Position numbers and translations under genes: made by a program. A DNA stretch of 64,000 nt from Octopus sinensis (Eukaryota), in contig NC_043015.1 of assembly GCF_006345805.1 (NCBI RefSeq), forward strand, positions 46,500,001-46,564,000, read 5' to 3'. Numbering within the stretch: position 1 is the stretch's first letter; every line of letters begins with the position of its first letter. Below the pieces are notes generated by a model, which worked only from the letters and a program-made list of their open reading frames with translations, was not told the DNA's origin and did not search any database. Shown here in pieces: positions 5,125 to 10,311 of this stretch.

Positions 5125-5384
5125 CTTATCAATCTGGCAGAGCTGGCGCCGGATCTCCAAATCTCTCCTAGCACAGAGAGCCCGCCGATGTGATCCAATA
5201 TCATGAAGAAGATTACTTCTGTCTTTGTTCTTTTTTACAGAAGCCATGTGGAGAGCAGCAATGTGGTTTCGAAACTTGAACTGATCAACTTCAGGTGGAT
5301 TAGTATCTTTTGTTGAATTTTCATTTGTTGAATTTTCATTTGTTGAATTTTCAGTTGTTGAATTTTCATTTGGCTGGTCTTTGC
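5125..5384 (-). CDS. ZC3H13: ZC3H13 exon 17
   Basis: ttttctag acceptor, gttttg donor; ...IGSHRRALCARRDLEIRRQL matches the ALC.RRD..IR.QL motif; phase 1 to 0. Confidence 0.93.
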
Positions 5385-7690: not shown

Positions 7691-7909
7691 CCTGTTCGTT
7701 TGTCTCTTTTATTTCCCTTAAATGTTTATTGCAAATGTCTTGAAGTTTAATGAAGATAAAGTCACCAGCAAACTGACGAGAGACACCAATCTTACTAAAT
7801 ATCCGGCCAGGCCTGAACCCCTGCAAAGCAGAGCCCAACTGTTCAGTAGGTTTCGGACGGTTTGTTTGCATCATGTGTGACCAATCAATATTGAGGACAT
7901 CAACAATAC
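7691..7909 (-). CDS. ZC3H13: ZC3H13 exon 16 (conserved C-terminal domain)
   Basis: ctttgcag acceptor, gtaatt donor; IDWS...GSALQGFRPGRIFSKIGVSRQFAG matches the family pattern IDWS...AL..F.PG.....G.S...AG; phase 1 to 1. Confidence 0.93.
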
Positions 7910-9107
7910 CTGCAAAGAAAGTAAGAAAGGAAAATATATAAATACATATAAGAAGTTTAGAAACTTCAAGAGAATGCAAAATAATTTGTTTTTAACCCCT
8001 TACCCGGCAGAAACGAATATATGCGTTTTGACCGAAATCGTTTTTTTCTATCTCTGGTGAGTTAACTTGTCAAAAGATAGACTCGCCAAAATCGACAGCA
8101 AACGAGTTCCTTCGTCTATTATAAACTCTTTTTTGACATATTCTATATACATATAGTAAAATAAAACAATTAAAAAATATGTCTGAAAAAATACATTTAT
8201 TTTCAAAATAATTGTTGGAACTTGAAGCAGATAATGCTATAAATGATAGAGCACTGTGCTGACCTCTTCTATTTACAGAGAAGGTGGGTTCGAATCTCAG
8301 GGGTAGCCTTCAACCTTTTCTCACCAAAAGAAATTTTAATCCAATATTCACATATTTATAGCTTTACAAATACAAATGTATTTATCATGAACAGTTTTAA
8401 AAAAAAGGGGGACATTTGCAGTGAAGAAATAAAAAAATAATGAAGCAAAACAAATCAATAATAATTAAGCAATAAACACGAAAGTCAAATGTAAAATTCT
8501 GCTATAAAAGCTTCAATCATCTTCATCCTTTAACATCTGCTTTCCATGCTGGCATGGATGGGTTGGATGGTTTGACCAGAGCTGGCAAGCTAGAGGGCTG
8601 CACCAGATTCCAGTCTGATTTGGATTGGCTTCTACAGCTGGATGCCCTTCCTTAGAAATAGAAACTTCTCAGAAAGATTTTTCGTAAGTGTAGGTAGGGC
8701 TATATAGTTAAGAAGCTTGCTTTGTAACGACATGGTTTGGGGTTCAGTCCCACCATGTGGCATTTTGGACAAGGGCTGACCATTGCCCTGTGAGTGAATT
8801 TTGTAGACAGAAACTGTGTGGGAATCTGTTATGTATGTGTGTGTGTCTTTGTGTTTGTCCTCCCTTCCTGCAGCGTGGCAACCAGTGTTGGTTTGTTTAT
8901 GCCCCATTAATTTAGGTGTCTTGGCAAAATAGGTCAATAGAATAAGTACCAGACTTGAAAAACATGTACTTGGATGAATTTATTCGACTAAACCCTTCGA
9001 GGCAATGGCAGAAAGAAGTAAAAAATAAAAGATAAATCAATGGAGGTCTGGACCTTGGTGATGAATTGTGGGGAAAAGGTGCCACGTTTTGAAGTAACTA
9101 TTAACGT

Positions 9108-9369
9108 ATATATTTAAGAGATGAGGAATTATGTACATTATTTACATTCAATGGATATTTGTCCTCATCTTGTGTTGTGAACACATTTCGGCTGATATAT
9201 CATCCAGACTTCATCAGGTGTCTTGGGGAAATTTCGAACCTGGGTTCTCATTCCTAAGGTATTTTTCGATGTTATTATTTTTATTATTATTGTTCAGGTC
9301 ACTACTTGGAATCGAACTCGGAATCTTGGGGTTAGTAGCCCGCACTCTTAACCACTACGCCATATGCCC
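9108..9369 (-). mobile_element. tRNA-headed SINE-like element with a hammerhead-like (Penelope-type) tail
   Basis: Head GGGCATATGGCGTAGTGGTTAAG...GAGTTCGATTC carries A/B boxes; tail GACAC-CTGATGA-stem-GAAA-TGTGTT. Confidence 0.7.
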
Positions 9370-9375
9370 ATGGGA

Positions 9376-9463
9376 CTGGCCGGATATTTACTAAGATTGG
9401 TGTACGTTGTCAGTTTGCTGGTGACTATATCTTCATTAAACTTCAAGACATTTACAATAAACA
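9376..9463 (+). other. Inverted intronic copy of ZC3H13 exon 16 segment 7723-7810
   Basis: 81/88 nt identical, without gaps, to the reverse complement of 7723-7810. Confidence 0.95.
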
Positions 9464-10045
9464 ATTATTAAAAATACCTTAGGAATGAGAACCCAGGTTC
9501 GAAATTTCCCCCAAAACACCTTAAGATGGCTGGAGGGTATATCAGCCGAAATGTGTTAACAACAAACAAGATGAGAGCAAATATCCGTCATCATCATCAT
9601 CATCGTTTAACGTCCGCTTTCCGTGCTAGCATGGGTTGGACGGTTCAACTGGGGTCTGGGAAGCCAGAAGGCTGCACCAGGCCAGTCAGATCTGGCAGTG
9701 TTTCTACAGCTGGATGCCCTTCCTAATGCCAACCACTCCGTGAGTGTAGTGGGTGCTTTTTACGTGCCACCGACACAGGTGCCAGATGAGGCTGGCGAAC
9801 GGCCACGGCCGGATGGTGCTTTTTACGTGCCACCGGCATGGAGGGTACGCAAGGCTGGCAACGGCCACGATCGGATGGTGTTTGTTACGTGCCACCAGCA
9901 CGGAGGCCAGTCGATGTGGTGCTGGCTACGGCCACGTTCGGATGGTTGAATGTAAATAATGTAAATAACTATTAACGTGTTGCTCAGTGAATGTACAACT
10001 ATTTCACCAAATACATAGCAAATTTAATAAAAAACATAAGCTCAC

Positions 10046-10171
10046 TTTTCTTTTTCTTCTTCTTGTCCCCACCGACTCCAAGGAGATCCAGGTCCAAATC
10101 TCCTGTCATGCTCTCTTCTTCTGAACTGATCTCTTCATACTGCATACTTTCAGTGTCTAGATCGATACCAT
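10046..10171 (-). CDS. ZC3H13: ZC3H13 exon 15 (YEEISSEEE motif)
   Basis: aacttcag acceptor, gtgagc donor; acidic YE.IS.EE motif preceding the C-terminal domain; phase 1 to 1. Confidence 0.88.
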
Positions 10172-10311
10172 CTGAAGTTAAAACAGAACCTAATTCAACT
10201 AAAACAGATAATTATGATGCCTCGTTTCTCCTGTCGCATTTGCAAACAATAGAAAAAGGAAAATTATTCATGTAAATTTCTATATATTAATAATAATAAT
10301 AATAATAATAT

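Follow-up and report, generated by a model that had tools for sequence, protein, structure and literature searches.

An antisense copy of a ZC3H13 exon segment in an Octopus sinensis intron is most likely a by-product of Penelope-like retrotransposon insertion

The intronic editing-complementary sequences of the GRIA2 Q/R site and of FLNA are conserved and have been shown to be edited. Penelope-like elements, a different source of inverted repeats, are described as carrying direct or inverted pseudo-LTRs (pLTRs), an optional tail at one end and target duplications (passages of PMC3846280 and PMC8557442); the tail is given as 30-40 nt in an excerpt of PMC8557442. Unrelated sequence captured between pLTRs, with target duplications, is reported for Penelope elements (PMC3846280, in part), and a purified Penelope-like protein has been shown to cut the two target strands and to extend both (PMC11167929, in part). 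The step that joins two inverted Penelope arms is called undefined in a section of PMC8557442. A literature search over partial texts found no description of a local source for the pieces captured by Penelope elements. Templated insertions have also been reported at LINE-1 sites (PMC11702581, in part).

The locus described here lies in a 64,000-nt stretch of Octopus sinensis DNA (the window). The initial annotation had claimed that an intron of an m6A-writer gene holds an ungapped 81/88 inverted copy of the next coding exon some 1.6 kb away. Direct comparison confirms this: the reverse complement of 9376-9463 is identical to 7723-7810 at 81 of 88 positions without a gap, identity collapses on either flank, and blastn within the window matches the copy to the exon segment with E 2e-32. 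It is located at a distance of 1565 nt from its source exon, in the upstream intron, and reads antisense in the ZC3H13 pre-mRNA. In the 2.7-Gb Octopus sinensis genome a search returned two matches only, the ZC3H13 exon and the copy at 9376-9463, with no third. The features of the locus are the following.

7691..7909, minus strand: ZC3H13 coding exon of 219 nt (tblastn; AG/GT ends; residues ~1493-1565 of 1698)
7723..7810, minus strand: source segment of the copy, entirely within exon 7691-7909 (direct comparison and genome search)
9095..9107, no strand: left target-site duplication of 13 nt, whose first 3 nt are alternatively element sequence at the right end
9108..9375, minus strand: left arm of the 5'-truncated Penelope-like element (family searches; contiguous with RT and GIY-YIG-like coding sequence in longer copies)
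Parts of the left arm, minus strand: tail ~9109-9128 (from the bimodality of the tail), pseudo-LTR to 9266, (ATT)n tract, tRNA-like stretch, palindrome-like end
9376..9463, plus strand: 88-nt copy of the exon segment, very probably captured, antisense in ZC3H13 pre-mRNA (comparison and genome search)
9464..9469, no strand: 6-nt filler from the copy to the right arm (junction reading)
9470..9586, plus strand: inner part of the right, inverted pseudo-LTR arm, 89% complementary to 9153-9266, inner 42 nt perfect
9588..9946, no strand: SINE-like repeat splitting the right arm, likely a later insertion (many copies in the window)
9946..9965, plus strand: outer end of the right arm, without tail (inverted match to 9129-9151)
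9966..9978, no strand: right target-site duplication (direct repeat of 9095-9107)
10046..10171, minus strand: upstream ZC3H13 coding exon (tblastn and contigs; longer in some protein records, with a start near 10196)

The seven differences between copy and exon segment comprise three isolated changes and four clustered within 5 nt; the minus-strand translation of the segment is GRIFSKIGVSRQFAGDFIFIKLQDICNKH. With no exon junction crossed and no poly(A), the copy was rejected as a processed pseudogene.

Eighteen ZC3H13 coding blocks are found in the window by tblastn with protein record P0001, and exon 7691-7909 is the 16th, third from last. Residues 1-45 of the protein were not found by tblastn within the 64-kb window, so the true number of this exon is at least 17; the earlier labels 'exon 16' and 'intron 15' hold as a count of coding blocks in the window but not as exon numbers of the gene. 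The exon translation shares 99% identity with an octopus ZC3H13 record and 69% with one from cuttlefish, and the exon is homologous to human ZC3H13 (PDB chain 7vf2_B, E 6.6e-10). These matches identify the gene as ZC3H13. ZC3H13 is, however, an accessory subunit of the m6A writer complex and not the methyltransferase, which makes the proposed link from editing to m6A writing speculative. The exon is joined to the upstream exon in contigs of two probable RNA runs (X9 and X11), and its length of 219 nt means that exon skipping would keep the reading frame. The next exon holds a 15-nt coding tandem repeat of NENST units (5306-5380) whose copy number varies among octopus ZC3H13 records. In one octopus annotation (P0006) ZC3H13 ends in a C-terminus that resembles a U6 snRNA phosphodiesterase, likely because the gene model has been fused with that of a neighbour.

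The copy is intronic, as the initial annotation had it, but it is not free intron sequence; it is enclosed in a transposon, where it fills the junction of the two inverted arms of a truncated Penelope-like retrotransposon (9108-9965) flanked by a 13-nt target-site duplication. Nested inverted repeats enclose it: 9225-9266 with 9470-9511 (42/42), 9153-9266 with 9470-9586 (89%) and 9129-9151 with 9946-9968. The loose ends of family contigs place the element edge at 9109, and contigs of runs X6 and X8 join 9590 to 9949, so that the SINE-like repeat is missing from other family copies. The element copy in the window is truncated and has no ORF. Its left arm contains CUGAUGA and GAAA boxes, but the computed fold is not a hammerhead, and Rfam gave neither a hammerhead match nor any real family. 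Beside the pLTR, in the 3' region of the family, is a tRNA-like stretch (9290-9362, minus strand); ARAGORN called no tRNA in it, and the Rfam tRNA model reaches just 19 bits in one other family locus (L005). The complementarity of the arms is uneven, perfect over the inner 42 bp and with ~10 mismatches and two gaps over the outer 75 bp, which may be chance or local gene conversion. A unique X6 contig departs from the window at 9105, two bases before the end of the left duplication, and continues for 24 unplaced letters; it possibly represents a variant or a site that lacks the element.

The family to which the arms belong is large, with 1497-2806 first-look candidates per query, 40 of which were scored for each query. 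Facing arms are present at 62 of 113 non-redundant family loci (the 113 include two from the window). Among the 52 pairs with both outer ends intact, a tail is found on exactly one arm in 44, and a flanking duplication of at least 8 nt in 34 as against 2/52 in a shifted control. The outer ends cluster at probe position 2 and at positions 20-30, which corresponds to a tail of ~20-28 nt. The slot after the left arm, which at ZC3H13 holds the exon copy, is occupied in many other copies by the end of an ORF. Two long family copies combine the same arms with an RT region and a GIY-YIG-like C-terminus. The long copy L165 carries the same arms as the window element and matches Pfam RVT_1 (E 1.3e-7, 32 bits against a cut-off of 29.6; one of five fragments scanned). 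The Pfam GIY-YIG model has no match in the family fragments scanned; the look-alikes score 0.96-0.97 in the Atlas, in clusters with PF01541 on 15-27% of members. A CVYSIPC..GRVYKGET motif was also observed. With facing arms, a one-sided tail, target duplication and RT in relatives, the family is Penelope-like. A MITE or Pack-type DNA transposon was rejected on account of truncation-variable arm lengths, asymmetric ends and arms that run into RT and GIY-YIG-like coding sequence. A second, different GIY-YIG-like ORF fragment lies upstream of a long family copy (L164:3505-4455), probably from another Penelope-like family.

The non-family interiors of the 62 two-armed loci were searched against their own 3-kb locus, and 20 loci were then searched at 10 kb. 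Two clear local captures (L065 and L005) are present among the 61 two-armed loci other than ZC3H13, and pattern searches added a weaker third case (L175); the loci were chosen by likeness to the ZC3H13 element, and the resulting capture rate of a few percent is rough. The insert in L065 (L065:1744-1831, G000:C9:29508394-29508481) is an 85-nt inverted copy, 94% identical to a source 3.4 kb away (29511832-29511916), with just two matches in the genome. It sits between two complete arms within a 12-nt duplication and starts right at the left-arm end, as in ZC3H13; its source shows no exon-like signs. L005 holds a 160-nt direct copy, 95% identical, of the flank abutting the element, and L175 a direct copy of ~125 nt, 82% identical to a putative source ~1 kb away, matched within its own locus. 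Since pieces of the neighbourhood occupy the same slot in other family copies, the copy in ZC3H13 most likely arose as a side effect of the insertion itself.

Inserts between complete arms were also sought with four pattern searches, which returned 18 locus ids from 15 places; by eye, non-family inserts occur at four of these (L065, L175, L171 and L172). No local source was found within 10 kb for L171, a piece of a dispersed repeat, or for L172, whose 129-nt insert between complete arms (L172:1501-1663) is unmatched in the other fetched loci. L020 was rejected as a local capture because its insert is a repeat present upstream in long family copies, and L091 because its 81% local match recurs at eight other loci. 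L038, L069, L110 and L171 are not captures, their interiors being other repeats or family sequence; L062 was not counted (its interior is another repeat; checked within 1.5 kb), and L042 gave no local source for its interior. Twelve further loci that have no clean facing pair contained no unique local copy beside an arm in the 10 kb searched. L005 and L065 are among the top two or three family matches to the window arms and may belong to a capture-prone subfamily, although the numbers are tiny.

The probability that the copy is an assembly artefact is close to nil. No contig piece covers 9376-9463 among the matches listed for the four runs, and for X6 the exon is uncovered as well, but gaps in such a list prove nothing. 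The initial annotation had argued from the seven mismatches that the copy is real; the argument is upheld, and is strengthened by clean junctions in an element with a target-site duplication and by the twin insert at L065.

Capture of the copy within the Penelope-like insertion, with either DNA or RNA as template, is in our judgement highly probable. More specifically, the copy was probably taken from nearby genomic DNA, with DNA as the template, during that insertion and is now likely a neutral passenger. A staggered cut would be followed by two cDNAs growing inward, to leave facing arms and the duplication; this order of events is modelled on the cutting and extension of both strands by the Penelope protein. 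Before the arms joined, one 3' end may have primed briefly on DNA that lay exposed 1.3 kb away from the cut, and have been extended by 88 nt. If the left arm folded back on its own strand, the observed orientation would follow, and brief priming on local DNA during end joining would account for direct and inverted inserts alike. Microhomology at the junctions is weak; a possible 3-nt microhomology requires one later mutation. The exonic nature of the template would be chance, and an occasional exon capture would be expected by chance given thousands of family copies. Decay of the copy since then has been no slower than that of the element. In the pre-mRNA the arms are predicted to pair first and to hold the copy in their loop, so that ADAR would act mainly on the intronic arm hairpin and exon editing, if any, would be partial, low and unselected.

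The same event could instead have used an RNA template, if the right-arm cDNA jumped to nascent ZC3H13 pre-mRNA, reverse-transcribed 88 nt and joined the left arm. The orientation fits, since the minus strand of the copy corresponds to a reverse transcript of the mRNA; the copy is entirely inside an exon, and template jumps have been proposed for Penelope (PMC3846280, in part). We regard this version as unlikely. L005 took its copy from DNA directly adjoining the element, a sign of a DNA template, the L065 source is without exon signs, and at ZC3H13 no exon junction is crossed, so RNA is not required.

The copy is diverged from the exon at 7/88 positions and the arms from the family majority at 11/353 scored columns (Fisher p 0.06 towards faster decay of the copy, p 0.5 when the changes are counted as four events; the numbers are small). 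The exon segment 7723-7810 is unchanged in runs X8, X9 and X11 and in protein record P0004, and at three of the four spots concerned cuttlefish agrees with the exon (S, SR, C); at least six of the seven changes are therefore in the copy. These figures bear on a later entry of the copy, in which a break in the palindromic centre of the already inserted element would have been patched by templated repair. Hairpin-forming junctions are prone to breakage, and the interiors of L038 and L069 are clearly later insertions of other repeats. Such a patch is nevertheless quite improbable at ZC3H13: the copy is diverged at least as far as the arms, thus not younger, and the insert begins exactly at the left-arm end both here and in L065.

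The copy was first noticed as a candidate guide for editing. The geometry of the proposed pairing stands, with an exon:copy duplex of ~83-90 bp (-132 kcal/mol by folding as an isolated duplex) in which 20 of 23 adenosines of the paired exon stretch would recode if edited; it competes, however, with an arm hairpin that forms earlier. Folding of 7691-9978, which the initial annotation had called for, gives a best nested fold with 129 arm pairs (127 with narrower bounds) and no exon:copy pairs. When the exon duplex is imposed, no arm pair remains and the penalty is 17 kcal/mol at 37 °C or 10 kcal/mol at 18 °C, a small gap for a 2.3-kb RNA; nested folding cannot hold both helices, which would form a pseudoknot, so the duplex may still form at times despite the zero count of exon:copy pairs. 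Transcription reaches the arm hairpin 1.3 kb ahead of the exon, the hairpin and the exon duplex cross, and a closed 203-nt loop should resist the winding-in of eight turns. The arm hairpin appears modestly favoured over the exon duplex.

The copy shows no sequence constraint and no sign of upkeep, and none of the seven mismatches sets a C opposite an exon A. Among 24 listed runs none is recorded as RNA; contigs of four of them were compared (X6, X8, X9 and X11), X9 and X11 being taken as probable RNA by guess. Each of these two gave a single long contig with the exon spliced in (5930 nt at depth 46 in X9, 5278 nt at depth 62 in X11), which differs from the window exon at 0 and 1 positions, respectively; the single difference, at 7717, lies outside the duplex and is common to X8. 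No majority A-to-G change in the exon was found in either of the two probable RNA runs, whose contigs drop minor variants and whose tissue is unspecified. In the upstream exon, X11 differs at 10104 (T>C, A>G on the RNA) and at 10086 (A>G), both changes being common to X8; these look like alleles, not editing. No recoded residue in the exon was found among the protein cluster members, where the octopus members that cover the exon are genome annotations. ZC3H13 is absent from the parts available of the supplement text of PMC8382921, PMC9068888 and PMC9699675, a text that has no site-level tables and hence is no evidence, and a literature search found no paper combining ZC3H13, cephalopod and RNA editing.

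That the copy, whatever its origin, works as an editing-complementary sequence which recodes the ZC3H13 exon or controls its splicing, and is kept for that, is very unlikely. The duplex is long and stable in isolation, has its partners within 1.6 kb, falls only 10-17 kcal/mol behind the arm fold and offers mostly nonsynonymous targets; editing of the arms could loosen them, and coleoid neural editing is reported to be concentrated in coding sequence (PMC9068888, in part), although in octopus introns and 3' UTRs hold most editing overall (PMC9699675, in part). Against this are the lack of constraint on the copy, the lack of a C opposite an exon A, and the contigs of X9 and X11, which carry the unedited, included exon as the majority form. 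The nearest inverted partner pair at this locus is moreover arm:arm and not exon:copy; between human Alu pairs, editing declines with distance to the closest inverted partner (PMC526178, in part). For the earlier suggestion of recoding or an effect on splicing we found no evidence. Some measurable, unselected editing of the exon is possible, though on our judgement somewhat doubtful. It is improbable that the family makes editing guides, a few percent of its insertions placing a nearby piece, at times inverted, in the same transcript, and that the ZC3H13 exon:intron duplex now recodes an m6A-writer scaffold in the neural tissue of one octopus lineage; if true, it would amount to a recoding cluster whose birth is dated, limited to one species and explained by a known mutational mechanism.

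Under the favoured reading, capture from local DNA, the locus is mostly an ordinary transposon scar that hints at a route for new editing duplexes. Short inverted copies of nearby DNA, left behind by an element family, would be a concrete source of dsRNA editing partners in cephalopods, and the locus offers a natural test through comparison of this exon in the presence and absence of the copy. If the exon is unedited, the locus is no more than an ordinary transposon scar and a caution that an antisense copy of an exon does not by itself imply an editing guide. The local captures also bear on how two inverted Penelope arms are joined.

Among known systems the octopus family most resembles the endonuclease-bearing Penelope/Poseidon-type elements as described in passages of the papers cited below, with which it shares an RT followed, in long copies, by a putative GIY-YIG-like domain at the C-terminus, 5' truncation, inverted pLTRs that face each other, a tail at one end, target duplications of 8-15 nt and host sequence between the pLTRs. 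It differs from Penelope as described in parts of PMC3846280, PMC8557442 and PMC11167929 in that the captured pieces are short, direct or inverted, and have their source within 0-3.4 kb, and the tail of ~20-28 nt is shorter than the 30-40 nt given for Penelope-like elements (PMC8557442, in part). LINE-1 templated insertions and twin priming (PMC11702581, in part) likewise involve two primed ends, an inverted structure, an intact target duplication and occasional templated inserts; LINE-1 is, however, a different class of element, and both octopus arms begin at the 3' pLTR, neither being primed internally. The arm:arm hairpin (117 bp, 89%) is a substrate of the kind formed by Alu:Alu pairs (PMC526178, in part) and the likelier ADAR target, but it is entirely intronic and its editing would not recode.

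With the GRIA2 Q/R and FLNA guides the locus shares an antisense partner of coding sequence that lies in an intron of the same pre-mRNA, no more than ~2 kb away. In contrast to those guides, the ZC3H13 copy is a decaying direct copy of the exon inside a competing hairpin, and is a candidate guide only.
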